Origin: an uncultured Candidatus Saccharibacteria bacterium
GTDB taxonomy: Bacteria; Patescibacteriota; UBA1384; XYA2-FULL-43-10; 1-14-0-10-43-13
Length of the DNA stretch: 32,000 nucleotides
Direction of reading: 5' to 3'
Assembly: GCA_964543385.1 (NCBI GenBank)
Contig: CAZIYE010000002.1
Coordinates: 30,001 to 62,000 of the forward strand
Part shown: piece by piece, positions 3,776 to 23,186 of the stretch
Layout: the number at the start of each line of letters is the position of its first letter
Numbering within the stretch: position 1 is the stretch's first letter
Notes under the pieces: model-generated
Databases searched by the model: none
Told to the model about the DNA's origin: nothing
Seen by the model: the letters and a program-made list of their open reading frames with translations, nothing else
Position numbers and translations under genes: made by a program

Positions 3776-4525
3776 ATGGAAGAAAAAGATTTACCAATCG
3801 AAAACAGGCTTAAGGACTTGCGAAAAGAAAAGCACCTTAGTCAAGAGGAATTAGCCGATGCAATCGGTATTTCTCGTCAGTCAATAATCTCACTTGAACA
3901 AGGCAGATCAATGCCTTCTGTTCCGTTGGCGATTTCCCTATGTCGGTATTTTGATGCCGCATTTGAAGAACTTTTCGACTTCGAGCGCGAAGTTGATAGA
4001 GAAATCAACAATGCAATTCACAATGGTAGTATTAATATAAAAGTAATTAATGATCCAGAAGTCGGATCGAGAAAGGACAATGCTATGGTAGAATTAGAGC
4101 CATGGAGACCTTTTAGAGAAACAGTATCCTTGAGAGACGCAATGGATCGGCTTTTAGAGGATAGTTTTATTACTCCTGCCAAAATGGGGGGTATGCCTCG
4201 AATTGATGTCAAAGATAAGAAAGACTCAATTGTAGTTAAAGCCGAGTTGCCAGGAATCAAGGAAGAGGACATCAATGTCGAAATCCTCGATAATGTCATG
4301 ACAATCTCAGGTGAGAAAAAAGAGGAAAAAGAAGAGAAAGAAGAGGACAAAGGCTATTATTACAAAGAAAGCCATACTGGAAAATTCTCTCGAAGTTTCA
4401 CCCTGCCATCTGAAGTAATGACCGAAAGGGCCGTTGCTGATATGAAAAATGGTATTCTCACAATCACTGTTCCAAAAATAGAGCCAAAGAAAGCTCAAAA
4501 GATAAGCATCGCCCCAAAGAGATAA
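3776..4525 (+). CDS. fusion protein: N-terminal XRE-family helix-turn-helix domain + C-terminal Hsp20/alpha-crystallin domain
   Basis: HTH: LRKEKHLSQEELADAIGISRQSIISLEQGRSMPSVPLAISLCRYF. ACD: PRIDVKDKKDSIVVKAELPGIKEEDINVEILDNVMTISGEKK...GKFSRSFTLPSEV...ADMKNGILTITVPK. One uninterrupted 249-aa ORF. Confidence 0.85.
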   Translation: MEEKDLPIENRLKDLRKEKHLSQEELADAIGISRQSIISLEQGRSMPSVPLAISLCRYFDAAFEELFDFEREVDREINNAIHNGSINIKVINDPEVGSRKDNAMVELEPWRPFRETVSLRDAMDRLLEDSFITPAKMGGMPRIDVKDKKDSIVVKAELPGIKEEDINVEILDNVMTISGEKKEEKEEKEEDKGYYYKESHTGKFSRSFTLPSEVMTERAVADMKNGILTITVPKIEPKKAQKISIAPKR

Positions 4526-4596: not shown

Positions 4597-5223
4597 TTAT
4601 GAAAGAAAATCTTTGCCACTCCAATCATCCATAAATTCTCTTAGATATTTTGCGATAATCTCATGTCTCCTATCTGCAATTATTCTAGCAGTTTTAGTAT
4701 TCATCATATCTCTTAAGAGCAAAAGTTTTTCATGAAAGTGGTTTATACTTGATCCATTTTCTTCCTGAGATTCTTCAGGGTCGAAAATTGGTCTATTTAT
4801 CTGTGCGCCGTAAGCAAATGTTCTGGCAATACCAATAGCACCTAGTGCATCGAGTCGATCTGCATCTTGGACGATTTGTGCCTCTAGTGTCTCTGGTTTT
4901 ATAGCATGCCTTTTATCCTTGAAGCTCACTGTTAAAATTACATCAATAATTCTATCAATCTTTTCTTGGCCAATCCCTAGAGTGTCCAACCATTTCCGCG
5001 TCTTGGATCTCTCTTTCTCATCTTCTACACTTGAGAACTTGTGATCATCAATATCATGAAGCAGAGCAGCCATCTCTACAATAAAAGCATCGGCTTTTTC
5101 CTTTTCGCAAATATATTGTGCAGCTTTCCAAACCCTCTGAGTATGCCACCAATCATGACCAGAAATGTCATCCTTGAAAAAATCTTTTACAAAATCAATT
5201 GTTTTCTCTATTTCTTTATTCAT
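4597..5223 (-). CDS. HD-domain metal-dependent phosphohydrolase (YpgQ-like)
   Basis: H...HD signature: WWHTQRV ... AALLHDIDDHK ... QDADRLDALGAIGIAR. 208 aa. Confidence 0.8.
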   Translation of the reverse strand: MNKEIEKTIDFVKDFFKDDISGHDWWHTQRVWKAAQYICEKEKADAFIVEMAALLHDIDDHKFSSVEDEKERSKTRKWLDTLGIGQEKIDRIIDVILTVSFKDKRHAIKPETLEAQIVQDADRLDALGAIGIARTFAYGAQINRPIFDPEESQEENGSSINHFHEKLLLLRDMMNTKTARIIADRRHEIIAKYLREFMDDWSGKDFLS

Positions 5224-5290
5224 ATATCTATTATATCAGAGATTATTTTTCTAAATAAAAAAAAGGTCATCACTATCGATGATCTTTTTT

Positions 5291-5367
5291 TGGTGGGGCT
5301 GGGCGGACTCGAACCGCAGACCTCTTCAATGTCAATGAAGCGCTCTAACCAACTGAGCTACAGCCCC
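5291..5367 (-). tRNA. tRNA-Val (anticodon GAC), CCA encoded
   Basis: Minus strand reads GGGGCTGTAGCTCAGTTGGTTAGAGCGCTTCATTGACATTGAAGAGGTCTGCGGTTCGAGTCCGCCCAGCCCCACCA. Cloverleaf folded by hand. Anticodon stem CTTCA/TGAAG, loop TTGACAT. One mismatch in the T stem. Confidence 0.9.
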
Positions 5368-5468
5368 AAGTATTTATTTCCCAGATTGGAACAACAAGAA
5401 TATTAGCAAATTATTTGCAATTATTCAACTTCGACAGCGATAAATCAGCTCACTGTGGAAAACTAGAG

Positions 5469-5571: not shown

Positions 5572-6012
5572 ATGAAGATCAAAGCAAAAAAATTAAATAA
5601 AGATGCCATTGTTCCTGTCCATTTATTACATGGTGACGCAGGGTTGGACTTACATTCCGTAATAGATGTAACTTTAAACTCAGGAGAGAGGCTTGCAGTG
5701 CCTACAGGGCTAGCATTTGAGCTGCCGGAGGGCTATGTATCATTGATCTGGGATAAGAGCGGATTAGCTCTGCGAAATGGTATAAAAACGATGGGCGGGG
5801 TGATAGAATATACTTATCGGGGTGAATATAAAATAATATTGCTAAACACGACCAATACGCCGTTTCATATTAAAAAGGGTGATAAAATCGCCCAGATGCT
5901 GGTGCAGCCAATAATGTCAGTTGATGTTGAAGAAGTCGAAGAATTAAGCGAGACAGAGCGCGGACTACATGGATTTGGCTCTGCTGATGAGAAGCTAAAG
6001 AATGGAAAATAA
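5572..6012 (+). CDS. dut: trimeric dUTPase-fold protein (dUTP pyrophosphatase)
   Basis: Motifs GDAGLDL, DKSGLA, GGVIEYTYRGE, GDKIAQML and the C-terminal ERGLHGFGSA. In motif III the usually invariant Asp is Glu (GVIE instead of GVID). Confidence 0.85.
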   Translation: MKIKAKKLNKDAIVPVHLLHGDAGLDLHSVIDVTLNSGERLAVPTGLAFELPEGYVSLIWDKSGLALRNGIKTMGGVIEYTYRGEYKIILLNTTNTPFHIKKGDKIAQMLVQPIMSVDVEEVEELSETERGLHGFGSADEKLKNGK

Positions 6013-6685
6013 AACCGGAAAATTCATTGTCATAGATGGTTCTGACGGGTCAGGTAAAAAGACCCAGTCTGATTTATTGATTGAAAGCTTGAAAAAAGCA
6101 GGGCATGAGACCGCTTATTATGATTTTCCTGATTATGATTCATTCTTTGGTAAGATGGTAGGCCGATACCTCAATGGAGAATTCGGCGAAGCAGATCAGG
6201 TCAGCCCCTATCTTGGCTCACTTTTATATGCAGGGGATCGCTGGCAAGCAAGTAAACAAATAGAAAAAGATCTTTCAGAAGGCAAAATTGTCATTTCAAA
6301 CCGATACACGCAGTCAAATATGGGCCATCAGGCTGCAAAAATAGACAATATTGATGAAAAAGAAAAGTATTTGAAATGGCTTGAAGAGCTAGAGTTTAAT
6401 ATTTATAAAATACCAAAACCAGACTTAGTTTTATTTTTACATGTCCCAGTAGAGATAAGTCAGAATCTGTTTGTCGGAAAGGGAAAGCGCAAATATACAA
6501 AGGCAGTCAAAGATATCCACGAAGGGAATGTCGATTTTATGAAGAGGTCGGTCAATGAATATCTCCGTTTAACAGAAAAATATCCAGAGTGGCGAAGAAT
6601 TGATTGTACAGAGGCAGAAACCCTACTGTCAAAGGAAGAGATTGCTGATAGAATTTATTCGATGATAACGAAAGAAGTTTTATGA
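6002..6685 (+). CDS. tmk: thymidylate kinase
   Basis: FIVIDGSDGSGKKTQ P-loop, a DRY-type motif present as NRY, and a lid region. Overlaps the dut end by 11 nt. TGA stop. Confidence 0.85.
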   Translation: MENKTGKFIVIDGSDGSGKKTQSDLLIESLKKAGHETAYYDFPDYDSFFGKMVGRYLNGEFGEADQVSPYLGSLLYAGDRWQASKQIEKDLSEGKIVISNRYTQSNMGHQAAKIDNIDEKEKYLKWLEELEFNIYKIPKPDLVLFLHVPVEISQNLFVGKGKRKYTKAVKDIHEGNVDFMKRSVNEYLRLTEKYPEWRRIDCTEAETLLSKEEIADRIYSMITKEVL

Positions 6686-6830
6686 TCAGAGATAGGTAAA
6701 TTTAGATGTTATTCCGGCCTTAATCATTCCTTTCTCATCAAAGCGGATGTTGAGCGAGGTGGAATCGGAATGTACAAAATAGCAATTAGATCCCAAATAA
6801 AATTTGGGATGAAAAAATAAAGGAGCCATT

Positions 6831-8072
6831 ATGAATTTGAAAGATCAAGACAAAGAAATATTTGAAGTAATCAATTGTGAAAAAGAGCGCCAAGTCGAAG
6901 GTTTAGAGATGATTGCTTCTGAAAATTATGTCTCAGAAGCTGTCCTCGAAGCAACTGGTTCAATCCTCACTAACAAGTATGCTGAGGGCTATCCATACTC
7001 TAGATATTATGGTGGCTGTGAGTGCGTTGACAAAGGAGAGTCATTAGCAATTGAGCGATTAAAGAAATTATTTGGCTGCAAATTTGCCAATGTTCAGCCA
7101 CACTGTGGATCAAGTGCAAATATGGCAGCTTATGCTGCTATCCTTGCGCCAGGTGATAAATTGCTCGGACAAAGTTTAGATGCTGGAGGACATTTGACTC
7201 ATGGAGCCAAAGTTTCTTTTTCTGGGAAATGGTTTGAGTCATACAGCTATGGACTTGATTCAGAAACTGGACAGTTAAATTATGAAGAGATCAGAAAAAT
7301 TGCACTTGAAGTAAGGCCAAAAGTTATTATGTGTGGGTACTCAGCATATCCAAGAAAAATAGATTTCAAGAAATTTAGAGAGATTGCTGACGAAGTAGAC
7401 GCATATTTGATTGCAGATATAGCCCACATAGCCGGATTAGTTGCTACTGGCTATCATGATTCTCCTATTGGTATCGCTGATATAGTTACATCAACAACTC
7501 ATAAAACTCTAAGAGGTCCACGTTCCGGCATCATTATGACAAATAATGAAGAATTGGCAAAGAAGATTGACAAAGCGGTTTTCCCGATGCTTCAGGGTGG
7601 TCCACTCGAGCATGTTATTGCCGCTAAGGCAGTTGCATTTGGCGAAGCGCTAAAACCTGAATTTAAGATATATATAAGCAATGTTTTAGATAATATGCAG
7701 ACTTTTGCCAAGACTTTAATGTCTTTTGATTTTGACTTGGTCACTGGCGGGACAGAGAATCATCTAATATTAGTCGATCTTAGAAGCAAGAGCATAACCG
7801 GTAAGGAATTCGAGTATGCTCTACACGAAGCAGGGATTACAGTAAATAAAAATGCTATTCCCAATGACCCAAATCCGCCAAAAGTTACTTCCGGCATCAG
7901 AGTTGGGACAGCCGCATTAACAACCCGCGGAATGGGTGTTAAAGAAATGCAGCGGATTGCTGAAATGTTTAATATCGTTGCTGAAAATATCAGCGATGAG
8001 CAAAAACTTGCCGAAATCAAACAAGAGATTAAAGAAATGACCGAAAATTTCCCAGTACCGGGCATTAAATAA
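6831..8072 (+). CDS. glyA: serine hydroxymethyltransferase
   Basis: 413 aa with GLEMIASENYVS, YAEGYPYSRYYGGC and TSTTHKTLRGPRSG (PLP-lysine motif). SD aaaggag lies 6 nt upstream. Confidence 0.96.
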   Translation: MNLKDQDKEIFEVINCEKERQVEGLEMIASENYVSEAVLEATGSILTNKYAEGYPYSRYYGGCECVDKGESLAIERLKKLFGCKFANVQPHCGSSANMAAYAAILAPGDKLLGQSLDAGGHLTHGAKVSFSGKWFESYSYGLDSETGQLNYEEIRKIALEVRPKVIMCGYSAYPRKIDFKKFREIADEVDAYLIADIAHIAGLVATGYHDSPIGIADIVTSTTHKTLRGPRSGIIMTNNEELAKKIDKAVFPMLQGGPLEHVIAAKAVAFGEALKPEFKIYISNVLDNMQTFAKTLMSFDFDLVTGGTENHLILVDLRSKSITGKEFEYALHEAGITVNKNAIPNDPNPPKVTSGIRVGTAALTTRGMGVKEMQRIAEMFNIVAENISDEQKLAEIKQEIKEMTENFPVPGIK

Positions 8073-8081
8073 GGATTAGCG

Positions 8082-8390
8082 ATGGATTTTTCAGAATTAC
8101 AAGAAAAAATTATTGCCAATGCAGAGCGATATTCAAAAAAACATGATATTTTAATTAATGATGATTATGCAATTCATAAATTATATGAAGAAGTTGGCGA
8201 GTTTTCTCAAGCCTGGCTTATTCACAATCGCCAATGCAGAGAATCGAAATATGTTGAAAAAGAGATGTCCAAGAAGATGATCTCGCACGAATTGGCTGAT
8301 ATAATCGGAATTGCGGTAGTGATAGCAAATTTGCAGAAAATAAACTTAGAAAAAGCAATTGACCAAAAATGGATTAATAGAGAAAAATAA
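8082..8390 (+). CDS. MazG-like all-alpha nucleoside triphosphate pyrophosphohydrolase (single domain, DCTPP1/YpjD-like)
   Basis: 102 aa with LYEEVGEF (EExxE-type metal motif) and ISHELADIIGIAVVIA (second acidic helix). Confidence 0.7.
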   Translation: MDFSELQEKIIANAERYSKKHDILINDDYAIHKLYEEVGEFSQAWLIHNRQCRESKYVEKEMSKKMISHELADIIGIAVVIANLQKINLEKAIDQKWINREK

Positions 8391-8391
8391 T

Positions 8392-8946
8392 ATGATATTA
8401 GGAGTAACTGGAACAATTGGCGCTGGCAAAGATTTGATTGCAAGATATCTGGAAAGTAAAGATTTTCAGCATATTTCTACTGCCGATATCCTTAGAGAAG
8501 AAGTCTCTCAAAAAGGCTTATCCTTAGAACGTGAATCATTACGCACTTTTTCAAACGATTTAAAGAAAGAAAAAGGTGGCGATTATCTAGCAAGGGAGGC
8601 TGTTGCTAGAATGAAAAGTGATAATATTATAATATCCGCAATAAGAGCAGTAGAAGAAGTCGATTACCTAAAAAAACTAGATAATTTTTATCTTATTTTT
8701 ATTGATGCTCCTGTTGAATTACGATATGAAAGAATCAGAAAAAGATCACGGATAGGCGAGAAGGAAATAGCCTTTGAAGAGTTTAAAAGAAAAGAAGACT
8801 TAGAAATGTTTGGCCAAAGCTCACAAAGACTAGATTATTGCAGGGAGAAGGCCGATTTCATAATTAGTAATACTAGCTCCATAGATCAATTAAATATAGA
8901 AATTGACAATCTGCTAATCAAGATTAGGGAAAGTGGAAATAAATGA
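8392..8946 (+). CDS. P-loop nucleoside/nucleotide kinase (CoaE / dNMP-kinase-like), substrate unknown
   Basis: ILGVTGTIGAGKD P-loop at the N-terminus and a lid-like RYERIRKRSR. I prefer ATG 8392, directly after the mazG-like stop, over the track's TTG at 8359. Confidence 0.65.
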   Translation: MILGVTGTIGAGKDLIARYLESKDFQHISTADILREEVSQKGLSLERESLRTFSNDLKKEKGGDYLAREAVARMKSDNIIISAIRAVEEVDYLKKLDNFYLIFIDAPVELRYERIRKRSRIGEKEIAFEEFKRKEDLEMFGQSSQRLDYCREKADFIISNTSSIDQLNIEIDNLLIKIRESGNK

Positions 8947-9773
8947 CACAGTTTGATCATGTATACCAAGATGCAATAGCCAGAGTTCTGAATGAAGGAG
9001 TGGAAGATTTTAATGTTCGTACTGGCATGAAAGTAAAGGCAGTGCCGGGACTTACTTTTCAGTGTGATTTTGGTTTTCCGATATTAACATTACGCAAAAT
9101 CCCCATAAAACTATTTATAGCTGAGATGGTTTGGTTTCTTTCTGGTAGCAAGGATCCAGATGATTTCTTAAGTAAATATACGAAAATATGGGATGATTTC
9201 CGAGAAGAAGATGGTACTATTGCTGCGGCTTATGGTCATCGCTGGAGACACCATTTCGGGCGTGATCAGATAAAAGACTTAATTTCCCTTCTCCAGAATG
9301 AGCCATCTTCGCGCCACGGTGTGGTCGTAACATGGGATCCGGCAGACGACGGTCTTGGCAGCGGCACGAAAAAGAAAAACGTACCTTGTCCATACACATT
9401 TACCGTAAATATTATCGGTGATAGACTTCATTTGCATTCAATAGTTCGCTCAAATGATATGATGCTTGGCTGCCCTCACGATACAGCCGGCTTCTCATTG
9501 CTCCAATATTTATTAGCAGCAAAACTTGGCGTAAGACCAGGCGTTTATACACATTCAGTAAGCAATGCTCATATATATGAAAATCATTATGACCAGGCAT
9601 GGGAGATCGTGAATAGAGAAAATTCTCACCCCCCAATCGTTTTTGAGCCCAGGCCAGATTATCTAGATAGAGCAATGGCAGGGGACGAAAGCGTAATAAA
9701 TGAAATTTACGAAACATTAACAGAACAATACAAACCTAGATCAGCAGTTAAAAAAATGAAGATAGCATTATGA
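8943..9773 (+). CDS. thymidylate synthase (ThyA) superfamily enzyme with Asp at the Asn177-equivalent position; predicted pyrimidine C5 (hydroxy)methylase acting on a cytosine nucleotide
   Basis: ThyA-family motifs: VRTG, FIAEMVWFLSG, AYGHRWR, DQIKDLISLLQNEPSSRH, catalytic NVPCPY, VRSNDMMLGCPHDTAGF, SNAHIYENH. The start overlaps the kinase stop by 4 nt. Confidence 0.85.
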   Translation: MTQFDHVYQDAIARVLNEGVEDFNVRTGMKVKAVPGLTFQCDFGFPILTLRKIPIKLFIAEMVWFLSGSKDPDDFLSKYTKIWDDFREEDGTIAAAYGHRWRHHFGRDQIKDLISLLQNEPSSRHGVVVTWDPADDGLGSGTKKKNVPCPYTFTVNIIGDRLHLHSIVRSNDMMLGCPHDTAGFSLLQYLLAAKLGVRPGVYTHSVSNAHIYENHYDQAWEIVNRENSHPPIVFEPRPDYLDRAMAGDESVINEIYETLTEQYKPRSAVKKMKIAL

Positions 9774-10297
9774 AAACAATAATAATCATGGCTCAGTCAC
9801 TTGATGGTGTGATAGCTTATGACGCTGACCACGCCGCGAACTGGACATCGAAAGAAGATAAGCAGTTTTTTATATCTGAAACCAAGAAAGCCGGAGTAAT
9901 AATTTTTGGCAGAAATACCTATAAAACTTTTGGCGACAAACCTTTGCAAGGCAGACTAAACCTTGTGATGACCCTGGATGAAAGTGAAAAGCAATTTGAA
10001 AAGCCAGGTCTTGTTGAATATGCGGTTAAAAAAGAGCCATCGGAAATATTAAAAATGTTAAAAAAGAGAGGCTTTAAAAAAGTTTTTGTCGGCGGAGGAA
10101 GTATGATTAATTCACTTTTCCTTGATAAGGGGTTAATCGATGAACTTTGGATAACCATTGAGCCAAAAATTTTTGGAAAAGGATTAAAAATACTCACTGA
10201 TCAAAAAAGAGATATTAATCTTGTTTTGAAAACAGTTAAAAAAGCAAACCAATCAGTTTTATTAAAGTACGGAGTGAATTATGGGAATTCTAACTAG
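9770..10297 (+). CDS. dihydrofolate-reductase-fold reductase (RibD C-terminal domain family)
   Basis: IIIMAQSLDGVIA..., IIFGRNTYKTFG, VFVGGGSMINSLFLDKGLIDELWITIEPKIFGKG. ATGA overlap with the thyA-like stop. Confidence 0.7.
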   Translation: MKTIIIMAQSLDGVIAYDADHAANWTSKEDKQFFISETKKAGVIIFGRNTYKTFGDKPLQGRLNLVMTLDESEKQFEKPGLVEYAVKKEPSEILKMLKKRGFKKVFVGGGSMINSLFLDKGLIDELWITIEPKIFGKGLKILTDQKRDINLVLKTVKKANQSVLLKYGVNYGNSN

Positions 10298-10997
10298 AAA
10301 AGAAATTTTGACTGCTATTGCTGATGGGGAGCTTAGTTTTGAGCCAGGCTTAGACCAATTTCAGCTACAACCAGCTGCAATCGACGTTCGGGTTGGTATG
10401 AACTTTTTCATACCAAAAATTTGGTCATTTGGAGAAGAGGGAAGAACGGGCTTGAATACTGATCATCTTGATAACGAAAAAAAGAATGAGTTTTTAGATA
10501 GTCTACATTTAAAACATGGGCAGACCTTTGAATTGCTCCCAGGGGAATTTATCTTAATTTCGACTCTAGAAAAGATTTCTATGAAGTCAGGCAGACTTGT
10601 CTCTATCCTTTATCCTAGGAGTTCCACGACCAGAAGAGGTATATCTATTGAATCTGGCGTTATAGATCCTCATTACGAAGGCTCTCTTATGATCCCTGTT
10701 TTTAATATGACTAGAACGCAAAAAATCAAGATATATCCCGGTGAAAGAATTGCCCAGCTTGTTTTTTCTACTACCGAGAGTGTTCTTTCTAAGGAAGAGT
10801 CCTTGAATCATGGACTTGCAAAACCTAAATATCAGGGAGTCCAAGGCTATCAGTTGGATTATAAGTTCGATCCGCATGATGAAATCAATTTAGTCAAAAA
10901 TGGCCAATTGGATAAATTAAAAAAGAATCACCTAATTTCATTAGACGAAAGGGTTGAAAGTGGCGACGAAAAAAATCAACTACCCTTATCTGCCTAA
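10281..10997 (+). CDS. dCTP deaminase/dUTPase-superfamily protein (Dcd-like N-terminus, dUTPase-like catalytic motifs, no deaminase Glu)
   Basis: ILTRKEILTAIADGELSFEP...AAIDVRVG (Dcd-like), YPRSSTTRRGISI, GVIDPHYEGSLMIPVFN, PGERIAQLVF. SD ggagtg lies upstream of the ATG. About 45 aa of C-terminal extension. Confidence 0.75.
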   Translation: MGILTRKEILTAIADGELSFEPGLDQFQLQPAAIDVRVGMNFFIPKIWSFGEEGRTGLNTDHLDNEKKNEFLDSLHLKHGQTFELLPGEFILISTLEKISMKSGRLVSILYPRSSTTRRGISIESGVIDPHYEGSLMIPVFNMTRTQKIKIYPGERIAQLVFSTTESVLSKEESLNHGLAKPKYQGVQGYQLDYKFDPHDEINLVKNGQLDKLKKNHLISLDERVESGDEKNQLPLSA

Positions 10998-11841
10998 AGG
11001 TAGAGAAATCAAGTTTGTCGGTTCTGAAAATGAATATATATTAGCGGCTAAAGAGGCTGCTATGAAGGCTGGCTGCAGAAAACAGCCAACAGGAGCAGTC
11101 TTGGTCAAAGACGGCAAAATAATAATGACGGCTACCAATGCAAGTACTACGGTCAGCGTCTGCCCCAGAGTATTAAAAGGAAGCAAGACTGGAACCGACT
11201 ATCATTTTTGCAAGGAAGTTTGTAATCAAGACGGGCACTCTGAATATAGCGCAGTACAAAAATGTCTAGAGAAGGGGATAGACATAAAAGACGCTGATAT
11301 TTATCTCTGGGGACATTGGTGGTGCTGCAAACCATGTTGGGACAAGATGATCGAAGGAGAAATCAAAAATGTTTATCTGGAGAAAAATGCAGATGAAAAA
11401 TTCATGTTTTCCGCAACTATCGGCAAAATCTATATTTCAGGTGCTCTCACCATACAGCCAAAGGGTAAAAATTTAAGAAAATCATATGAAAATTTAGCAG
11501 CAGTTTGCTCAAACTTTTGTAGCAATGTTTATGTGCCACATCTTAATAGCACGGATCCGATCAAGGATCCCAATGAAGTGCCGTCTATTGTTTGGAAAAC
11601 TGATCACAGGGAAGTAGCTTCTTCTGATATCGTAGTCGCATATGTTGGCGCACCATCTCTAGGGACTGGCGCAGAGCTTGAGATCGCCAGAATGGCGGCT
11701 TCAGATATAGTAGTTTGGTGGTATAAAGGTGAAATGGTTAGTAGAATGTGTCTTGGAAATCCAAATGTTAAATATAAGTTGGAAGTTATCAATGACCAAG
11801 ATTTAGCCCATCAGCTTAAGTTAGTCCTAAGGAATTATTAG
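10954..11841 (+). CDS. fusion: dCMP/cytidine-deaminase-fold zinc domain + DNPH1/Rcl (nucleoside 2-deoxyribosyltransferase-fold) domain
   Basis: Deaminase signature: DGHSEYSAV (HxE) and CCKPCWDKM (PCxxC). C-terminal half: IYISGAL ... SSDIVVAYVGAPSLGTGAELEIARMA. Start uncertain: TTG 10954 or GTG 10960; the latter has aaggg 6 nt upstream. Confidence 0.75.
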   Translation: MKVATKKINYPYLPKGREIKFVGSENEYILAAKEAAMKAGCRKQPTGAVLVKDGKIIMTATNASTTVSVCPRVLKGSKTGTDYHFCKEVCNQDGHSEYSAVQKCLEKGIDIKDADIYLWGHWWCCKPCWDKMIEGEIKNVYLEKNADEKFMFSATIGKIYISGALTIQPKGKNLRKSYENLAAVCSNFCSNVYVPHLNSTDPIKDPNEVPSIVWKTDHREVASSDIVVAYVGAPSLGTGAELEIARMAASDIVVWWYKGEMVSRMCLGNPNVKYKLEVINDQDLAHQLKLVLRNY

Positions 11842-12079: not shown

Positions 12080-13807
12080 ATGCAAGAGAAAATCGACATC
12101 GAAAAAGTTAGACACTCGCTTAGCCATGTTTTGGCTGCAGCTGTTTTGGATATGTTTCCAGAGGCAAAGCTCGGTATCGGACCGGCTATTGAGAATGGTT
12201 TTTATTATGATTTTGATTTGCCAAGAACTTTAATCCCAGAAGACCTGCCAATCCTTGAGGAGAAAATGAAAAAAATGATTGCTGGTGATTTTGCCCTAGA
12301 ATGCAGGAAGGAGCCGAAAGACAAGGCTGAAAATTTTTTCAAAAAAATAGGTCAACAGTATAAATCTGAATTAGCAAGTGAAATTGATGATGAGAGTGTC
12401 TCAATATATGACATAAAAGACGAGAAAAGCGGTCAATATGTATTTGCTGATCTTTGCGCTGGGCCACACATCGAGTCTGCGAAAAATTTAAGAAACATTG
12501 GCTGGAAATTAGATAAAATCGCTGGTGCTTATTGGCGTGGTAATGAAAAGAATAAGATGTTGCAGCGTATTTATGGGTTGGCTTTCGAAACTAGAGACGA
12601 ACTAAAAGAATATGAGCTGATGATGATCGAAGCAGCTAAGCACGATCATAAAAAATTAGGCAAAGAGCTGGATTTGTTCTCTTTTCATCCCGAAGCTCCG
12701 GGTATGCCCTTCTGGCACGAAAAAGGGATGGCTATTTGGACTCAGCTTGAAAAATTTGGCAAATCAATTCGTAAGAAATATGATTATATTGAGATCAAGA
12801 CTCCACTTCTAGCCAAAAATAGCTTATGGATAACATCTGGCCACTGGGACCATTATCGAGATGGCATGTTCACTTTTAATATCGGCGAAGATATTTATGG
12901 ACTGAAACCCATGGATTGTCCATTTAATGTAAAGATTTATCAGACGAAACCAAGATCATATAAGGATCTGCCAATTCGTTACACAGAAATAGGTCATGTT
13001 CACCGCAAGGAGCAATCGGGTGAATTAAATGGTCTTTTGAGAGTACAAGAAATTACCCAAGATGATTCTCATATATTTATGAGAGAAGACCAAATCGGCG
13101 AAGAAATTGGTAAATTATTAAAAATGGTCAAAGAATTTTATAAAAAACTCACATTAGAACCAGAGTTTTTCCTTTCGACTAGACCGGAAAAATATATAGG
13201 TGAGATTAAGACTTGGGACAAGGCTGAAGATGACTTAAGAAAGGTACTTGAGTCTGAAAAAATCAGCTATGAGCTGAAGGAAAAGGATGGCGCATTTTAT
13301 GGCCCAAAAATCGATGTTAATATCAAAGATGTGTTTGGTAGATCTTGGCAGTTAGCCACTATCCAGTTAGATTTTCAATTACCCGGACGCTTTGATTGTG
13401 AATATATAGACGAAAATGGTGAAAAAAAGACTCCAGTCTTAATACATGCTGCAGTATTTGGTGCGTTTGAACGCATGATTGGCATCTTAATTGAGCATTT
13501 TGGTGGTGCTTTTCCAACATGGTTGGCGCCAATTCAAGCTCAAATACTGCCGATTGCTGATAGACATCTCGAATATGCAAAGAAAATCAGAGAAGCATTG
13601 CAAGACCAAGGAATCAGAGTCTCTATTGATGATAGAACAGAATCCATCGGCAAGAAAATCCGTGAAGCTGAAATGCAAAAAATCCCTTACATGCTAATAG
13701 TCGGTGACAAAGAAATCGAAGCCAAGAAAATAGCAGTTCGAAAATATGGAGAAGGGGATAGGGGGCAGATAGATGCTGAGGAATTAATCAAAGAGATAAA
13801 TGGCTAA
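12080..13807 (+). CDS. thrS: threonyl-tRNA synthetase (no N-terminal TGS domain)
   Basis: Starts MQEKIDIEKVRHSLSHVLA (editing-domain HxxxH) after SD aaagaagga. Class II motifs: FHPEAPGMPFWHEKG, RVQEITQDDSHIF, GAFYGPKID. Anticodon-binding C-terminus. I prefer ATG 12080 over the track start 12056. Confidence 0.95.
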   Translation: MQEKIDIEKVRHSLSHVLAAAVLDMFPEAKLGIGPAIENGFYYDFDLPRTLIPEDLPILEEKMKKMIAGDFALECRKEPKDKAENFFKKIGQQYKSELASEIDDESVSIYDIKDEKSGQYVFADLCAGPHIESAKNLRNIGWKLDKIAGAYWRGNEKNKMLQRIYGLAFETRDELKEYELMMIEAAKHDHKKLGKELDLFSFHPEAPGMPFWHEKGMAIWTQLEKFGKSIRKKYDYIEIKTPLLAKNSLWITSGHWDHYRDGMFTFNIGEDIYGLKPMDCPFNVKIYQTKPRSYKDLPIRYTEIGHVHRKEQSGELNGLLRVQEITQDDSHIFMREDQIGEEIGKLLKMVKEFYKKLTLEPEFFLSTRPEKYIGEIKTWDKAEDDLRKVLESEKISYELKEKDGAFYGPKIDVNIKDVFGRSWQLATIQLDFQLPGRFDCEYIDENGEKKTPVLIHAAVFGAFERMIGILIEHFGGAFPTWLAPIQAQILPIADRHLEYAKKIREALQDQGIRVSIDDRTESIGKKIREAEMQKIPYMLIVGDKEIEAKKIAVRKYGEGDRGQIDAEELIKEING

Positions 13808-14225
13808 TCCAAAACCTGGAAAAGATTATATCGGTGTTGGTGGAGGGGTATTAATTATCAACGATAAAAAAGAAACTCTTTTGTTGAAACGAGGCAAGAA
13901 GGCAAAAAACGATATTGGAATCTGGTGCAAGCCTGGCGGCGCAGTGGAGTATGGGGAGACCGTTGAGGCAATGATGAAAAGAGAGGTCAAAGAAGAATTA
14001 AATATAGATATAGAAATCATTAAATGGCTCAAACATACAGATCATTTTGTTGATGGCGATCACTGGGTCGCATTTAATTGCGTTGCCAAAATTATAAATG
14101 GTAATCCGGAAAATATGGAACCTCTTAAACATTCCGAAATAAAGTGGTTTAGTCTTGATAAAATGCCGAAAAATCTAGCTGCACCTACTAAAGATGCAGC
14201 AGAAGAATATCTAAAAAGTCTATGA
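13800..14225 (+). CDS. NUDIX hydrolase
   Basis: Nudix box GGAVEYGETVEAMMKREVKEELNI. Overlaps the thrS stop by 8 nt. Confidence 0.85.
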   Translation: MANPKPGKDYIGVGGGVLIINDKKETLLLKRGKKAKNDIGIWCKPGGAVEYGETVEAMMKREVKEELNIDIEIIKWLKHTDHFVDGDHWVAFNCVAKIINGNPENMEPLKHSEIKWFSLDKMPKNLAAPTKDAAEEYLKSL

Positions 14226-15376
14226 AATTTCCAAAAGGTTTTTTATTTGGTTCTGCTACTGCTGCCCATCAAATTGAGGGCGGCAATTATGATAATGATT
14301 GGTATCAATGGGAGAAAATCCCAGGGAATATTATCGATGGCTCGACTTCGGAAGTCGCTAATGATAGCTGGAACAATTGGCGTGAGGACATACGACTCCT
14401 AAAACAGACCAAGCAGAATGCTTATCGGTTCTCTATAGAGTGGGCTAGAATTGAGCCAAAAGAGGGGGTCTTTGATTATGAAGTAATAAAGCAGTACAAA
14501 GAGATATTACTTGAGCTTAAGAAAAATGGCATTAAATCAATGGTCACGCTTTTTCATTTTACTTTTCCTTTCTGGCTGGCAAAAAATGGAGGTATTGTGA
14601 ACAAGAAGATAGGTTTCTATTTTGAACGTTATGCTATGGTTGTAGCCAAAGAGCTCGGCGAACTCATCGACCTATGGGCAATCCTGAATGAACCAAATGT
14701 TTATCTGCTCAAGGGCTATATCCATGGTGATTGGTGTCCGGGCCAAAAAAATTATTTCAAGATGATCAAAGGATGGTTTAATTTCATAGATTGCCAGAAA
14801 AGAGCATACAAAAAAATTAAAAAAATCGTCAAAAATGCAAGAATTGGTATTGCGATGAATATCGCTGTTTATAGGCCAGCGACCGAAAATTTTTTAGATA
14901 AAATTTTCACTTGGGCTACTCCAAAAATTACTCATGAAATATTTTTATTTTTTATAAAAAATTATTGTGATTTTTTTGGTATTAATCACTATATGAAATT
15001 TATTGTTGGTTTTGGCAAGAGTGCAAAACAAGCAGGAGAGAATCAGTCCGATTTTGGTTGGGGAATAAATCCAGAAAGCCTTTACGAGGTTATTAAGGAA
15101 AATATCCATTGGGGTAAGCCAATTTATATAACAGAAAATGGTATTGCAGACGCAGATGATAAGTTGCGGCCGGAATTCATAAAAGATGCTTTAGGACAGA
15201 TCAAAAAAGCCTTAGATGACAATATGCCAGTCAAAGGGTATTTCCATTGGAGTCTAATGGATAATTTTGAATGGGCTCATGGTTACAGTATGAAGTTTGG
15301 ATTGTTCACAATAGATCGCAAACCAAAAAAAAGTGCAAATATTTATAAGTGTCTTATAGAGAAATACTCTAACTAA
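14222..15376 (+). CDS. glycoside hydrolase family 1 beta-glucosidase
   Basis: FLFGSATAAHQIEGG, acid/base ILNEPN, nucleophile YITENGIA, and the C-terminal HWSLMDNFEWAHGY. ATGA overlap with the nudix gene. Confidence 0.9.
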   Translation: MKFPKGFLFGSATAAHQIEGGNYDNDWYQWEKIPGNIIDGSTSEVANDSWNNWREDIRLLKQTKQNAYRFSIEWARIEPKEGVFDYEVIKQYKEILLELKKNGIKSMVTLFHFTFPFWLAKNGGIVNKKIGFYFERYAMVVAKELGELIDLWAILNEPNVYLLKGYIHGDWCPGQKNYFKMIKGWFNFIDCQKRAYKKIKKIVKNARIGIAMNIAVYRPATENFLDKIFTWATPKITHEIFLFFIKNYCDFFGINHYMKFIVGFGKSAKQAGENQSDFGWGINPESLYEVIKENIHWGKPIYITENGIADADDKLRPEFIKDALGQIKKALDDNMPVKGYFHWSLMDNFEWAHGYSMKFGLFTIDRKPKKSANIYKCLIEKYSN

Positions 15377-16392
15377 CTATTAGAAATATCATTTAATATT
15401 CGCCAACGACGTTCTTTCTCAATCCATGGGATAGGATCTCCTAGCTTAAAAGCAGCAGTACCTTCTCGTGGGGAATATTTATTATTGAAGGCTTGCGAAA
15501 ATTTCACACTTGTTAATACATCAACAGTTTCTTGAAAATCATCCAGAGTTTCGTCTGGAAAGCCAACTATAGTATCAGTCGATAATTTTACATCAGGAAT
15601 TTTATTTTGTATTTTTCTTATTAATTCCAAATATATCTCTTTTGTGTACGGTCTATTCATCGCCTTTAATATCTTATTGCTACCAGATTGTATCGGCAGG
15701 TGAATAGATTTTGCAATTTTTGGTAGTGATGCAATAGCATCAATTATATCGTCGCTCATATCCTTGGGATGATTCGAAGTAAAATAAACAACAAAGTCCC
15801 CTGGAATATTGTTGATTTCTTTTAGCAGTTTGGAAAAACCAAATTCATAAGAATTTACATTTTGGCCCAGAAGCCATATTTCTTTATGGCCGGCGTCAGC
15901 CACCTTTTTCACGTCTTCAATTATTTCTATGGCAGGACGTGATATTTCTCTACCGCGGGTATATGGCACTGCACAATAAGAGCAAAAATTATTGCAACCT
16001 TTCATAATAGGTATATAATTCGATCTCTTTTGTCCTTCTTTTAACAAGCTAGACAGAACTAGAGCTTGATCACCATCAAGGCTCAGGAAATCTTTCAAAC
16101 TATCGATATCGCCATTGTCCCAGATCTTAGCTCCCTTGTTGGCAAATATTTTTTTATCTTTTTCGAGAATACAGCCAGATACAAAGACCTTTTTCCCTTC
16201 TTTGATAAAATTCTTAGTAATACTCATAGCTCGATCAACCCCGGTTTTTCGGACAGAACAATTCAAGAGAAACACTATGTCGGCCTCTTCTTTATTTGTT
16301 TCTCGTAAACCCAAGTTTCTTAGGACAAAAGCCAGGCGGGCAGCATCCCACTCGTTATATTGGCAGCCAAATGATTTGATGAAAAAATTCAT
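15373..16392 (-). CDS. radical-SAM methylthiotransferase family protein (MiaB/RimO-like), lacking a C-terminal TRAM domain
   Basis: UPF0004-type N-terminus FIKSFGCQYNEWD...LNCSVR...SGC. Radical SAM cluster CNNFCSYCAVPYTRG. Ends shortly after the radical-SAM core. Start is ATG 16392 (preferred) or 16431. Confidence 0.8.
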   Translation of the reverse strand: MNFFIKSFGCQYNEWDAARLAFVLRNLGLRETNKEEADIVFLLNCSVRKTGVDRAMSITKNFIKEGKKVFVSGCILEKDKKIFANKGAKIWDNGDIDSLKDFLSLDGDQALVLSSLLKEGQKRSNYIPIMKGCNNFCSYCAVPYTRGREISRPAIEIIEDVKKVADAGHKEIWLLGQNVNSYEFGFSKLLKEINNIPGDFVVYFTSNHPKDMSDDIIDAIASLPKIAKSIHLPIQSGSNKILKAMNRPYTKEIYLELIRKIQNKIPDVKLSTDTIVGFPDETLDDFQETVDVLTSVKFSQAFNNKYSPREGTAAFKLGDPIPWIEKERRWRILNDISNS

Positions 16393-16500
16393 TGTGTGTA
16401 TTTTAAAATAAATTGAATCAAGTGAAAACATACCAGAAAAATGTGTGTTTTTCTATCGGTCTTTTGTAAACCTCTGATTATGGTCAGCATGTGCTAAAAC

Positions 16501-16524
16501 AAAAATGCCCTTACGGGCATTTTT
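16501..16524. terminator. bidirectional intrinsic terminator downstream of rplY
   Basis: AAAAATGCCC-ttac-GGGCATTTTT: a perfect stem with an A-run and a T-run. Confidence 0.75.
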
Positions 16525-16552
16525 GCAATATGTAACAGAATTGACGGTAAAA

Positions 16553-17230
16553 TTACTCGGTTTTTTTCTCTTCAGCCTTTTTCTCTTCAGCGCCTTCTTC
16601 AGCTGGAGCTTCACCCTTGTTTTCAACTTCGATAGCCTCAACATCTTCCACGATCTCTTCGTTTAGAGCCTCCATTTCAGCTTCGCTTCGTGGCTCCTGA
16701 ACAAATGCAATAATTTCTTCTAGATCACTCAAAATTTCAATAGTTTCAGGGAGTTTAAGATCGGAAACTTTAATATTTTTTTCGAAATCATCCAATACAG
16801 ATATATCGACTGTAATTTCGGACATAAGATCACCCGGCAAACACTCAACCTCGATAGAATCAACAGGAGTGATTAGGGAACCTTCTAGATTTATAACAGC
16901 GTTTGAATCGCCAACAAATTCTAATGGGATTTCAGCATGAATCTTTTCTTTCATATTTACCTTTAAGAGGTCGATATGAATGATGTCTCCGGAGATTGGA
17001 TCAATTTGAGTGTCGTGAACCAATACTTTGAACTTTTTTTCACCAGCAGTAACATCTATAAGATTGGAAGTTCCAGCATCTTTAAAAATTTTTTCGAAAT
17101 CTATTCTATCTACGGCGATTGCTATTGGCTCAAAATGTTTACCATAAACAACAGCAGGAATCTTGCCTTCTTGTCTAAGCTTATTGGCTTTTGCATTTTT
17201 TTCAGTGGTCTTGAGTTTAAACTCTGTCAT
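16553..17230 (-). CDS. rplY: 50S ribosomal protein L25/Ctc (general stress protein form) with acidic C-terminal tail
   Basis: LRQEGKIPAVVYGK..., two-domain Ctc length (225 aa). Tail is ...VENKGEAPAEEGAEEKKAEEKKTE. Confidence 0.9.
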   Translation of the reverse strand: MTEFKLKTTEKNAKANKLRQEGKIPAVVYGKHFEPIAIAVDRIDFEKIFKDAGTSNLIDVTAGEKKFKVLVHDTQIDPISGDIIHIDLLKVNMKEKIHAEIPLEFVGDSNAVINLEGSLITPVDSIEVECLPGDLMSEITVDISVLDDFEKNIKVSDLKLPETIEILSDLEEIIAFVQEPRSEAEMEALNEEIVEDVEAIEVENKGEAPAEEGAEEKKAEEKKTE

Positions 17231-17242
17231 TTTTACCTTAAA

Positions 17243-17563
17243 TTATTTATTGGTATTGTTATTTTTTGAATTTTCAAATAGATTTTCGAAACTTCCATTA
17301 AAATCTTTAAAAAACTTGTATGTTTCGATTACATCGTTAGAGGTAATTTCAGTTCTCCTAGCCATAGAAGCAGGCGATTGCTTTGCTAGACTTACAGTAG
17401 CCAGTAGGGGCATGTGGCTCGAACAGTTGAGTTCTAGGAAAACCAATGAATCAACAACACCACGGATCTGAATCAAAGGAAAATCGTACGATTTGCCGCA
17501 CTGAGGGCAACGTACATTTTTCTGAACAGTTACAAGTAATTTGTATAGATCTTGATGATTCAT
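17243..17563 (-). CDS. hypothetical protein (106 aa) with a single CxxC
   Basis: ORF lies between uvrB and rplY on the same strand and contains VRCPQCGKSY. No family recognised. Confidence 0.5.
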   Translation of the reverse strand: MNHQDLYKLLVTVQKNVRCPQCGKSYDFPLIQIRGVVDSLVFLELNCSSHMPLLATVSLAKQSPASMARRTEITSNDVIETYKFFKDFNGSFENLFENSKNNNTNK

Positions 17564-17623
17564 AATACCACGAAATTATAGCTCTTTAAGGGTCAAAAGT
17601 CAAGCTCAGAGCCGTTTAGCCTA

Positions 17624-19630: not shown

Positions 19631-19660
19631 TTAGTGTAGTTGATTGCAGCTACCGGTCTA

Positions 19661-19688
19661 TTGACTTAATTCCTAAAAGTGGTACTAT
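19661..19688 (+). promoter_or_regulatory. sigma70-like promoter pointing into the GC-rich island
   Basis: TTGACT (19661-19666), 16-nt spacer, extended -10 TGgTACTAT (19680-19688). It lies in the uvrB upstream region but on the opposite strand. Confidence 0.45.
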
Positions 19689-19826
19689 AGCTGCTATATC
19701 CAATAATAAACCATACCATTTTTAGAGACCAGAGTCTAGGGTAAATGTATTCTAACCCTGCTCTCTAAATCCCCATATTTTTATGATAGAGAGCAGTGTC
19801 TCAGAACCCCTAGGAGGTATCGAGTT

Positions 19827-20072
19827 ATGGCAAAGCGATCTAATCCCAGCACCAAAGGTGCCAAAAAGCCGGCAACGGAAGCGAAATTGCCTGGCTGGCT
19901 GCGCAATATTGCGCGTCGTGCCAAAGCCATGATTGAGCGTGGCCAACAGGTCATTCTGCTCATCAAAGGCAAAATCCGCGTCGGTCTTGCTTGCAAGGCC
20001 AAGGAGGTAGCTGATACCATCCTTGAAATTAGCAAGCGGCATCAGACCAAAGCAATCCAGATCGCTGCATAA
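19827..20072 (+). CDS. hypothetical small basic protein (81 aa) on a compositionally foreign island
   Basis: A TAGGAGGT SD lies 7 nt upstream of the ATG. G/C is strongly enriched at codon third positions (GCC, CTG, CGT, GGC codons), unlike every neighbouring gene. N-terminus is Lys/Ala/Pro-rich (AKRSNPSTKGAKKPATEAK); the C-terminus ends AIQIAA. No family recognised. Confidence 0.6.
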   Translation: MAKRSNPSTKGAKKPATEAKLPGWLRNIARRAKAMIERGQQVILLIKGKIRVGLACKAKEVADTILEISKRHQTKAIQIAA

Positions 20073-20090
20073 GCAGCAACATCGCAACAC

Positions 20091-20130
20091 ACTCCGGCTC
20101 GTACTGGGTACGAGCCGGAGTACCCCCCCC
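20091..20130. other. perfect 14-bp GC-rich stem-loop followed by a C8 homopolymer
   Basis: ACTCCGGCTCGTAC-tgg-GTACGAGCCGGAGT (20091-20121), then A + CCCCCCCC (20123-20130). No U-tract on either strand, so it is not a canonical intrinsic terminator. Confidence 0.6.
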
Positions 20131-20148
20131 AAGAAGAAGTCAATTGAA

Positions 20149-20814: not shown

Positions 20815-20846
20815 TTGATTGTTAACTAATTTAAATAGGTTTATTG

Positions 20847-20874: not shown

Positions 20875-20879
20875 CTCTT

Positions 20880-20950: not shown

Positions 20951-20967
20951 TTTATATAGTATCTATA

Positions 20968-23152: not shown

Positions 23153-23186
23153 TTGGTAATAACATTAATGGTTATATAAAAAATAT

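Follow-up and report, generated by a model that had tools for sequence, protein, structure and literature searches.

The subject of this analysis is a nine-gene operon on contig CAZIYE010000002.1 of an uncultured bacterium, which encodes a thymidylate synthase (TS, ThyA) homolog carrying an aspartate where the canonical enzyme has an asparagine, together with a predicted deoxycytidine monophosphate (dCMP) deaminase and enzymes of nucleotide and folate metabolism. The window—the whole stretch of DNA analysed—covers 32 kb of this genome, and relatives were read over at most 20 kb around each TS gene. An earlier note on the same DNA, made from its letters and a list of open reading frames (ORFs), had described nine head-to-tail ORFs on the + strand between 5572 and 11841; comparison of the ORF list with Pfam and NCBIfam profiles finds all nine in place, and every family assignment holds. 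In order along the strand, the features are:

5572–6012, + strand: dut, canonical trimeric dUTPase, 146 aa (TIGR00576 138.8 bits, cut-off 102.55; PF00692 102 bits)
6002–6685, + strand: tmk, dTMP (deoxythymidine monophosphate) kinase, 227 aa (TIGR00041 88.5 bits, cut-off 83.25; PF02223 81.8 bits)
6686–6830, + strand: tmk–glyA spacer, 145 nt, the only long spacer in the operon
6831–8072, + strand: glyA, serine hydroxymethyltransferase (SHMT), 413 aa (NF000586 615 bits, cut-off 335; PF00464 526 bits)
8082–8390, + strand: small MazG-like all-alpha nucleoside triphosphate (NTP) pyrophosphohydrolase, 102 aa (Pfam MazG-like 22.9 bits, MazG 20 bits)
8392–8946, + strand: P-loop nucleotide kinase, 184 aa, resembling deoxynucleoside monophosphate (dNMP) kinases (ATG 8392, alternative start TTG 8359; AAA_18/AAA_17)
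8943–9773, + strand: Asp-type TS homolog, predicted dCMP C5-methyltransferase, 276 aa (PF00303 182 bits)
9770–10297, + strand: dihydrofolate reductase (DHFR), T. maritima type, 175 aa (PF00186 52.9 bits, cut-off 25; PF01872 74.4 bits)
10281–10997, + strand: Dcd-family protein without the deaminase glutamate, 238 aa (PF22769 98 bits; TIGR02274 101.5 bits, cut-off 92.8)
10960 (GTG; or TTG 10954)–11841, + strand: gene for a deaminase::DNPH1-like fusion protein (PF00383 42 bits; PF05014 20.8 bits)
10960–11424, + strand: dCMP-deaminase-family domain of the fusion, residues 1–155 (PF00383 42 bits, cut-off 25; S. mutans dCMP deaminase, E 9e-5)
11425–11841, + strand: DNPH1/MilB-like nucleotide N-glycosidase domain of the fusion, residues 156–293 (AlphaFold2 model and Foldseek)

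Recomputed in this order, the junctions measure −11, +145, +9, +1, −4, −4, −17 and −38 nt, the last becoming −44 nt if the fusion gene starts at TTG 10954 rather than at GTG 10960. The overlaps and gaps first reported thus recur, with the addition of a 9-nt gap between glyA and the MazG-like gene that had been omitted. The dut and tmk genes overlap by 11 nt, the 3′ end of the kinase gene overlaps the TS start by 4 nt and the DHFR start overlaps the TS stop (ATGA).

The locus is chromosomal and comes from a bacterium of the Patescibacteria (candidate phyla radiation, CPR). Upstream of the operon lie tmRNA, tRNA-Val and a YpgQ-like HD hydrolase; downstream are genes for threonyl-tRNA synthetase (ThrRS), a NUDIX hydrolase, UvrB, TrmD, ribosomal proteins, PriA, Der, Lgt and signal peptidases. 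G+C content is uniform across the window. A prophage or mobile-element origin is ruled out by these housekeeping flanks and the uniform G+C, in keeping with the cellular, non-mobile setting first proposed. Contigs identical to this one are present in four sequencing runs, and the gene arrangement is not a matter of chance, because the same neighbourhood recurs in 80 species-level Patescibacteria genomes.

The TS homolog departs from the canonical enzyme at the active site. Its Asp180 (GAT, 9480–9482; motif RSNDMMLGCPHD) stands opposite E. coli Asn177 in two independent and concordant alignments (HMMER to TS proteins in the PDB, and MAFFT), which bears out the Asn-to-Asp exchange reported from the letters alone. 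The catalytic cysteine is retained (Cys149, 9387–9389, equivalent to E. coli Cys146) and is followed by Pro150 where ThyA has His147. Equivalents of E. coli Glu58, Tyr94, Arg166, Ser167, Asp169, His207 and Tyr209 are all kept; the changes relative to the E. coli enzyme are Asn177 to Asp, His147 to Pro, Trp83 to Phe and Arg127 to His. The protein has full TS length and a TS-like hydrophobic C-terminus, and its best PDB matches are true TS enzymes. It passes the TIGR03284 thym_sym model (121.6 against a cut-off of 108.35) and falls far below the cut-offs of seven other TS models, six ThyA NF models and the methanogen-type TIGR03283 (for example, 152 against 327 for NF002497).

This aspartate is found in 120 of the 120 closest TS homologs (61–96% identity) and in the TS of all 80 species-level Patescibacteria loci. 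We also ran an exhaustive TS search over 1.84 billion cluster representatives and examined the best 150 (50%-identity clusters): the first 76 representatives that cover the Asn177 position all have Asp, down to around 36% identity. Among the cluster representatives, the residue covaries with the one after the catalytic cysteine, Asp pairing with Cys-Pro (96 cases) or with another aliphatic residue in the second place and Asn with Cys-His (20 of 21), and the Asp plus Cys-Pro combination is invariant in over 100 clusters. The pattern that the earlier note had set against its own reading, a twin operon with an Asn-type TS in relatives, was not seen; of the nearest Asn-type representatives, the two whose contexts were read are both phage TS genes lacking a deaminase neighbour, and one adjoins a DHFR gene.

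According to work cited in PMC8670742, the exchange N177D (E. coli) or N229D (L. casei) turns TS into a dCMP methylase, and Asp179 is the cytosine-reading residue of the T4 dCMP hydroxymethylase. The window TS is 39% identical to the TS of Pseudomonas phage PaMx74, 37% to that of Xanthomonas phage Mallos, 30% to E. coli ThyA and 22% to T4 gp42. Taken together, these alignments support its membership of a large Asp-type clade whose characterised relatives methylate dCMP, and with it the earlier proposal that the enzyme acts on a cytosine nucleotide.

The genes around this TS homolog were compared by tblastn and blastp of the window proteins against 80 species-representative loci, and proximity was counted in the 55 loci whose sequence extends 3 kb or more to either side of TS, a neighbour being a gene within 3 kb. 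The counts are:

dCMP-deaminase-family gene near TS: 48 of 55 loci
DHFR near TS: 33 of 55 loci
Dcd-like gene near TS: 22 of 55 loci
kinase near TS: 15 of 55 loci
tmk near TS: 13 of 55 loci
glyA near TS: 11 of 55 loci
dut near TS: 10 of 55 loci

The deaminase gene is either co-directional, in the order TS-DHFR-Dcd-deaminase, or divergent and immediately upstream of TS. The genomes with an Asp-type TS include Falkow-, Uhr-, Kuenen-, Nomura-, Moran-, Magasanik- and Kerfeldbacteria as well as Paceibacteria, and the TS of the closest species-level genome is 95% identical to that of the window. Among complete genomes, the module is carried by OZ246400.1 (931 kb), JAHFLF010000001.1 and LBRL01000001.1, for example. 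The MazG-like gene sits beside TS solely in the nearest relatives, and the DNPH1-like domain occurs in 16 of the 80 loci, fused to the deaminase in 13. What had been described as a nine-gene unit thus has a conserved core of TS and deaminase (with DHFR and the Dcd-like gene), the DNPH1 fusion and MazG-like gene being additions of particular lineages.

Natural fusions within the Asp clade join the same functions in single proteins: one (P0144) is a dCMP deaminase::TS fusion and another (P0193, at locus L093) a PRA-PH (MazG-like)::TS fusion, while the Asn-type fusion recovered by the same search is an ordinary DHFR::TS. The deaminase::TS fusion lies on a phage-like 58-kb contig with ribonucleotide reductase (RNR) and VanY genes (L092, 8001–9302); directly beside it (L092, 9335–9973) is a Dcd-like gene of the same proline-bearing type as that of the window, 41% identical in protein sequence. 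The window deaminase is only weakly similar to the deaminase part of this fusion (21% identity). In a further protein (P0143), an HNH_3 domain stands ahead of an Asp-type TS. In another relative (L096, 8943–10295), tmk and a thymidine kinase gene (PF00265) come after a cluster of TS, DHFR, Dcd, deaminase and kinase genes, which implies that some of these bacteria also have thymidine salvage. Many of the metagenome-assembled genomes carrying the operon (L010–L030) bear the title ‘uncultured Gammaproteobacteria’ or ‘Candidatus Saccharibacteria’, labels that look generic or wrong. Close relatives of the window TS, the only kind that the method detects, were not found on IMG/VR viral contigs.

In the deaminase domain, 25 full-length fusion homologs share an invariant H93-x-E95, C122, C123 and C126, C68 and C84, with C88 near-invariant; the zinc-binding motifs H-x-E and C-x-x-C (H93, E95, C123, C126) are thus in place. 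The domain is a predicted deaminase of 5-methyl-deoxycytidine (5-methyl-dC) nucleotides or dCMP. The second domain was recognised by its fold, its PF05014 score of 20.8 bits lying under the cut-off of 28.8. In an AlphaFold2 model of the whole fusion protein (mean predicted local distance difference test, pLDDT, 87.7), Foldseek matched the N-terminal half to the T4 and S. mutans dCMP deaminases, and the C-terminal half to human DNPH1 (E ~1e-6, target-normalised TM-score 0.75–0.84) and to the CMP/hydroxymethyl-CMP glycosidase MilB (target-normalised TM-score 0.72–0.73). The C-terminal domain has the DNPH1/MilB fold in this model, as the name deaminase::DNPH1 given to the gene in the first description had implied. 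Across an alignment of 25 fusion proteins, E239 is invariant within PSLGxGAELE (PSLGTGAELE in the window); we take the S-L-G-x-G-x-E motif to be that of DNPH1 and E239 to correspond to its nucleophile.

The Dcd-like protein lacks the residue that would make it a deaminase. Its Pro139 (10695–10697) aligns with the catalytic Glu of the M. tuberculosis and B. halodurans Dcd enzymes in two independent HMMER alignments, a position that corresponds to E. coli E138 and M. tuberculosis E129. Of 37 Dcd-like genes neighbouring an Asp-type TS gene, 35 encode proline here, as do all of the 120 best Dcd-like homologs, many of them bearing the public name ‘dCTP deaminase’. The protein scores above the TIGR02274 cut-off and resembles Dcd and DCD-DUT enzymes in its Dcd-type N-terminal region, with RSSxxRRG and the active-site Ser and Arg retained; it differs from them in the proline and in a dUTPase-like core with the motif G-x-ID-x-x-Y-x-G. 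The core reads GVIDPHYEGSLMIPVFN, like a dUTPase, the corresponding motif of E. coli Dut being GLIDSDYQGQLMISVWN. In several loci the Dcd-like protein is found together with a canonical Dut, which speaks for a specificity other than that of Dut. Starting from three distant Pro-type members, we found an Asp-type TS and DHFR within 5 kb in all three cases and a directly adjoining deaminase gene in two. Its phage homologs are only about 30% identical, to archaeal-virus Dcd genes.

Judged by its residues, the ‘Dcd’ at 10281–10997 is not a deaminase. Since the deaminase Glu is missing, a pyrophosphatase role, as first suggested for the Dcd/Dut-like gene, is plausible; we infer a predicted dCTP (or dUTP, or 5-methyl-dCTP) pyrophosphatase that would supply dCMP. 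Pro-type proteins carrying the name ‘dCTP deaminase’ in NCBI and JGI records include P0394, P0401, P0439 and P0483, among others, and this naming is probably a misannotation.

The remaining genes bear on the supply and use of these nucleotides. The kinase resembles phage enzymes (phrog_139 ‘deoxynucleoside monophosphate kinase’, 55 bits), as would suit the re-phosphorylating role suggested for it at first; it also matches PRK08356 (84.9 bits), the archaeal (d)CMP kinase model TIGR02173 (38 bits) and, within NF041025, a model of anti-phage dCTP deaminases, the kinase portion (36 bits). Archaeal UPF0200/AdkA-like proteins match as well, as does SSO1041 in the PDB (E 3.5e-10). The folate-recycling genes named at the outset are both there: the SHMT encoded by glyA, whose predicted role is to supply 5,10-methylene-tetrahydrofolate (methylene-THF), and a true DHFR, which matches T. 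maritima DHFR (1cz3) over its full length (E 7e-22). The MazG-like protein scores slightly under the Pfam cut-offs (22.9 against 27 and 20 against 22); it has the metal-binding motifs EExxE and ExxD (EEVGE, ELAD), weak PDB matches to 1vmg, 2q73 and 2gta and weak matches to phrog_715 and phrog_4856.

The closest known parallel comes from bacteriophages. The best phage relatives of the window TS, from Mallos and PaMx74, are both Asp-type with the motif NVPCP, and their genes lie in the clusters TS-dCMP deaminase-DHFR (Mallos) and pyrophosphohydrolase-TS-dCMP deaminase-DHFR (PaMx74). PaMx74 belongs to the genus (Pamexvirus) of Xp12, the classical 5-methylcytosine (5mC) phage (PMC9206674), and in both Xp12 and PaMx74 cytosine is fully replaced by 5mC (bioRxiv 10.1101/2024.12.05.627091). 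The same study reported that 5-methyl-dCMP (5mdCMP) was made in E. coli by the TS of Xp12 and by five of seven metagenomic enzymes of the Asp type, that 70% of the deaminase genes on cytosine-modified contigs adjoined a TS gene against 6% of those on unmodified contigs, and that deaminases beside Asp-type TS are 5mC-selective and yield thymine nucleotides, ‘bypassing the need for another TS’; the characterised phage deaminase mSCD-B5 acts at the triphosphate level, on 5mdCTP only (bioRxiv 10.1101/2024.12.05.627091).

The window operon shares with the Xp12/Pamexvirus module the Asp at the Asn177 position, an identical NVPCP motif, 37–39% TS identity and the adjacency of pyrophosphohydrolase, TS, deaminase and DHFR functions, with the deaminase linked to TS. 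It differs in lying within a cellular chromosome amid housekeeping genes, in being kept across many Patescibacteria classes and in adding SHMT, Dut, Tmk, the dNMP-kinase-like gene, the Glu-less Dcd-like gene and, in some lineages, the DNPH1-like domain. Orthology of the window deaminase and MazG-like protein to the PaMx74 proteins was not recognisable, no BLASTP similarity being significant, so the likeness to the phage module is one of gene family and linkage.

T4 had been the paradigm of the earlier note, and the logic of a dCTP pyrophosphatase, an Asp-type TS homolog and a dNMP kinase is indeed shared with the T4 system (gp56 dCTPase, gp42, gp1 dNMP kinase); the closest paradigm is nevertheless the Xp12/Pamexvirus one, with 5mC as the product and the order pyrophosphohydrolase-TS-deaminase-DHFR. 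Like gp42, the window TS has an RSND motif. Unlike gp42, which is shortened and lacks the C-terminal segment, it is 276 aa long with a TS-like C-terminus and a coupled DHFR, and no glucosyltransferase or other DNA-modifying gene occurs in the window. The mildiomycin enzymes MilA and MilB likewise combine a TS homolog acting on a cytosine nucleotide with a glycosidase of the MilB/DNPH1 fold. MilA, a CMP hydroxymethylase, however, has Ala176 and Lys133 instead of the TS Ser and Arg (PMC5175136), whereas the window TS retains the Ser (R169-S170) and one Arg (S-R124-H125, where E. coli has S-R-R); there are, besides, no antibiotic-biosynthesis genes at the window, and its glycosidase is lineage-specific (13–16 of 80 loci).

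A separate observation concerns the phage data themselves. The phage preparations used for MetaGPA involved only a spin at 5000 g and precipitation with polyethylene glycol (PMC8670742). Ultra-small CPR cells could be present in such preparations, and some ‘modified phage contigs’ with TS and deaminase genes might be cellular.

We propose, with roughly even credence, that the operon encodes a vertically conserved thymidylate route of the Patescibacteria, running from dCTP through dCMP and 5-methyl-dCMP to dTMP, for which dUMP would not be needed. The Dcd-like protein, with or without the MazG-like enzyme, would convert dCTP to dCMP and pyrophosphate. The Asp-type TS would methylate dCMP at C5 with methylene-THF, giving 5-methyl-dCMP with dihydrofolate as co-product, and methylene-THF would be regenerated by the translationally coupled DHFR and by SHMT. 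The adjacent deaminase would turn the 5-methyl-dC nucleotide into a thymine nucleotide, most simply 5mdCMP into dTMP; deamination could alternatively take place at the triphosphate level, as with the phage enzyme mSCD-B5. Tmk would take dTMP onward, the dNMP-kinase-like protein would phosphorylate (d)CMP or 5mdCMP, Dut would remove dUTP, and the DNPH1/MilB-like domain, in the lineages that have it, may destroy an unusable pyrimidine dNMP, for which dUMP and a 5-hydroxymethyl by-product are candidates. In other words, the operon would be Xp12-type chemistry turned into a cellular housekeeping pathway, a view that we place about midway between doubt and acceptance. The analysis establishes which genes are present, their active-site exchanges, the synteny, the fusion proteins and the homology to characterised enzymes; every substrate and product in the scheme is predicted. 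The first description of the operon as something other than plain dTMP synthesis would then be true of the route and probably not of the product, which is likeliest to be ordinary dTMP—the first of the three outcomes then considered.

Several points weigh against such a route. Two of the seven metagenomic Asp-type TS enzymes yielded no 5mdCMP (bioRxiv 10.1101/2024.12.05.627091), and the position of E. coli Arg127 is His in the CPR clade. The CPR deaminase has only its Pfam family in common with the PaMx74 enzyme, with no significant BLASTP similarity, and because of this absence of detectable kinship a 5-methyl preference lacks support from orthology. Should the glycosidase that is fused to the deaminase act on dTMP, it would work against the pathway. 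Dut is also in the operon, so dUMP is made, and all nine genes fit canonical names. Finally, the 1.24 Mb of related loci contained no other PF00303-like ORF, and the ThyX motif RHRx7S gave only chance matches in short ORFs, but the absence of thyX and Asn-type thyA covers the loci alone (32 kb here, up to 20 kb per relative).

A more far-reaching reading, which we consider rather unlikely, is that 5-methyl-dCTP is made for replication and that 5mC stands in for much or all of the cytosine in the DNA, as in Xp12. The deaminase would then channel only a share of the pool into dTTP, with the pyrophosphatases keeping dCTP out, a division of labour to which we likewise give little weight. The gene set, which does not separate this from a thymidylate route, is that of phages with full replacement of C by 5mC (pyrophosphohydrolase, Asp-type TS, deaminase and DHFR); a phage-like dNMP kinase, required to lift 5mdCMP to the triphosphate, is present, as are two candidate dCTP pyrophosphatases (Dcd-like and MazG-like); the characterised phage deaminase acts on 5mdCTP only; and such replacement would be invisible to short-read sequencing. 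Yet tmk is translationally coupled within the operon, which fits dTMP as an intermediate, and no sequence feature demands base replacement. We know of no cellular organism with pool-level base replacement, and so of no precedent. A search of the literature on CPR/Patescibacteria found no report of dCMP methylation, 5mdCMP or unusual cytosine content. Signatures of C5 DNA methyltransferases, sought as an indirect sign of unmodified cytosine, were absent from the window and the 80 loci, which tells neither for nor against it. Taken to its end, this reading would have module-bearing Patescibacteria swap much or all of their own cytosine for 5mC, as the first cellular case of pool-level substitution and as a mark that tells their DNA from DNA scavenged from a host or the environment; we hold that extension to be distinctly unlikely.

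It is similarly improbable, in our estimate, that the operon is canonical, with an Asp enzyme that still methylates dUMP from Dut and from dCMP deamination and nine genes that are textbook. Each gene does match a standard family, TIGR03284 is passed, Dut is in the operon, a dCMP deaminase beside ThyA and DHFR is also normal in Gram-positives and T4, and a 2025 paper on Patescibacteria treats thyA there as canonical (PMC12455944). The likeness to the ThyA-DHFR-dCMP deaminase pathway of Gram-positives, eukaryotes and T4 (td/frd/cd) extends to the folds, the SHMT/DHFR folate cycle, the catalytic Cys and, on the dCMP route that we prefer, the end product dTMP. The difference lies in the predicted substrate, dCMP, so that methylation would precede deamination, and in a Dcd homolog predicted to be unable to make dUTP. 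A canonical operon leaves this Glu-less ‘Dcd’ unexplained and lacks the dCTP-to-dUTP branch. It also sits poorly with the shift of E. coli and L. casei TS to dCMP brought about by Asp, and with the reading of dCMP by the same residue in T4 gp42, both as cited in PMC8670742; with the fixation of Asp and of Pro for His147 over more than 100 clusters; with the production of 5mdCMP by the closest characterised relatives; and with scores far below cut-off for most other NCBIfam ThyA equivalog models.

The fusion protein raises a different prospect, sanitation or salvage, in which pyrophosphatases would take host-scavenged pyrimidine dNTPs to dNMPs, and the fusion would turn dCMP or modified dCMP into dUMP-type nucleotides and finally into free base and deoxyribose-5-phosphate. 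In mammals, 5-hydroxymethyl-dCMP is deaminated by DCTD and the resulting 5-hydroxymethyl-dUMP is hydrolysed by DNPH1; the window resembles this route in that a deaminase of the dCMP type and a glycosidase of the DNPH1/MilB fold, its catalytic-Glu motif intact, are coupled, in this case within a single protein, and several other nucleotide hydrolases lie nearby (Dut, MazG-like, Dcd-like, YpgQ-like HD and NUDIX). We nevertheless find this explanation very doubtful, as the glycosidase domain is present in just 13–16 of 80 loci, while TS and deaminase are nearly universal, and as the TS homolog, SHMT, DHFR and Tmk are biosynthetic and would have no part in disposal.

A hydroxymethylase leaves folate unoxidised, whereas reductive methylation yields dihydrofolate. 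A gp42- or MilA-like TS making 5-hydroxymethyl-dCMP, which the fusion would process to 5-hydroxymethyl-uracil or cytosine base, has in its favour that gp42 and MilA are among the Asp-type TS homologs, that RSND is shared with gp42 and that the glycosidase is structurally closest to DNPH1 and MilB, whose substrates are 5-hydroxymethyl pyrimidine nucleotides (PMC5175136), but we regard it as most improbable given an identity of 22% to gp42 against 37–39% to the methylase-type phage enzymes, the TS-like C-terminus and a DHFR that is translationally coupled and conserved although no folate oxidation would be expected. A methylase is favoured over a hydroxymethylase because the scaffold and C-terminus are TS-like, the sequence is closer to the methylase group and DHFR overlaps the TS stop.

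Within the operon, the 145-nt tmk–glyA spacer holds a perfect 9-bp hairpin at 6790–6810 (ATCCCAAAT-AAA-ATTTGGGAT), some 10 nt ahead of the ribosome-binding site of glyA. The spacer matched no Rfam family; this null result and an ordinary fold (z = −0.97) rule out a known regulatory RNA there. A promoter and terminator scan of the operon gave counts no higher than expected from shuffled sequence.

Elsewhere in the window, several neighbouring features were recorded:

3776–4525, + strand: XRE-type helix-turn-helix and HSP20 (alpha-crystallin) domains in one ORF, an unusual combination
4597–5223, − strand: HD-domain hydrolase, divergent from the operon and upstream of it, with tRNA-Val in between
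5041–5406, + strand: listed 121-aa ORF, spurious, as it overlaps the HD gene and runs through tRNA-Val
5291–5367, − strand: tRNA-Val (GAC)
13800–14225, + strand: NUDIX hydrolase, downstream of the operon and overlapping the ThrRS stop by 8 nt, a candidate nucleotide-sanitising enzyme
21830–23152, − strand: 440-aa ORF, peptide deformylase and methionyl-tRNA formyltransferase in one (Pep_deformylase and Formyl_trans_N/C)

The HD hydrolase strongly matches solved HD hydrolases, among them 5dqv (E 1e-41), which we take to be the nucleotide pyrophosphohydrolase YpgQ of B. subtilis, and may be a further nucleotide-pool enzyme on the same theme. The 440-aa fusion unites addition and removal of the N-formyl group in one protein and is also folate-dependent. 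Cumulative GC skew peaks at about 16 kb (15000–16500), where the genes switch from the + strand (to 15376) to the − strand (15373–26355); the peak could be a replication landmark or merely reflect gene strand bias.

The chemistry itself, and the module of TS, deaminase, DHFR and pyrophosphohydrolase, are already known from 5mC phages. What is new is that this module occurs as a housekeeping operon conserved over a major radiation of bacteria, together with the Pro-type Dcd-like family and the deaminase::DNPH1 fusion. To our knowledge, all cellular organisms are thought to make thymidylate by methylation of dUMP, through ThyA or ThyX. If the proposed dCMP route is correct, a radiation that holds perhaps a quarter of bacterial diversity would instead methylate dCMP and then deaminate the product, a chemistry that has so far been described only in phages whose genomes carry 5mC, and the question would arise whether the DNA of CPR bacteria is itself cytosine-modified. 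A new family of Glu-less Dcd-like pyrophosphatases would be defined, and the CPR would be a rich cellular source of dCMP methylases, and perhaps of 5mC-selective deaminases, of current biotechnological interest. Metabolic reconstructions of the CPR would change accordingly, the labels ‘thymidylate synthase’ and ‘dCTP deaminase’ in these genomes probably being wrong in detail.

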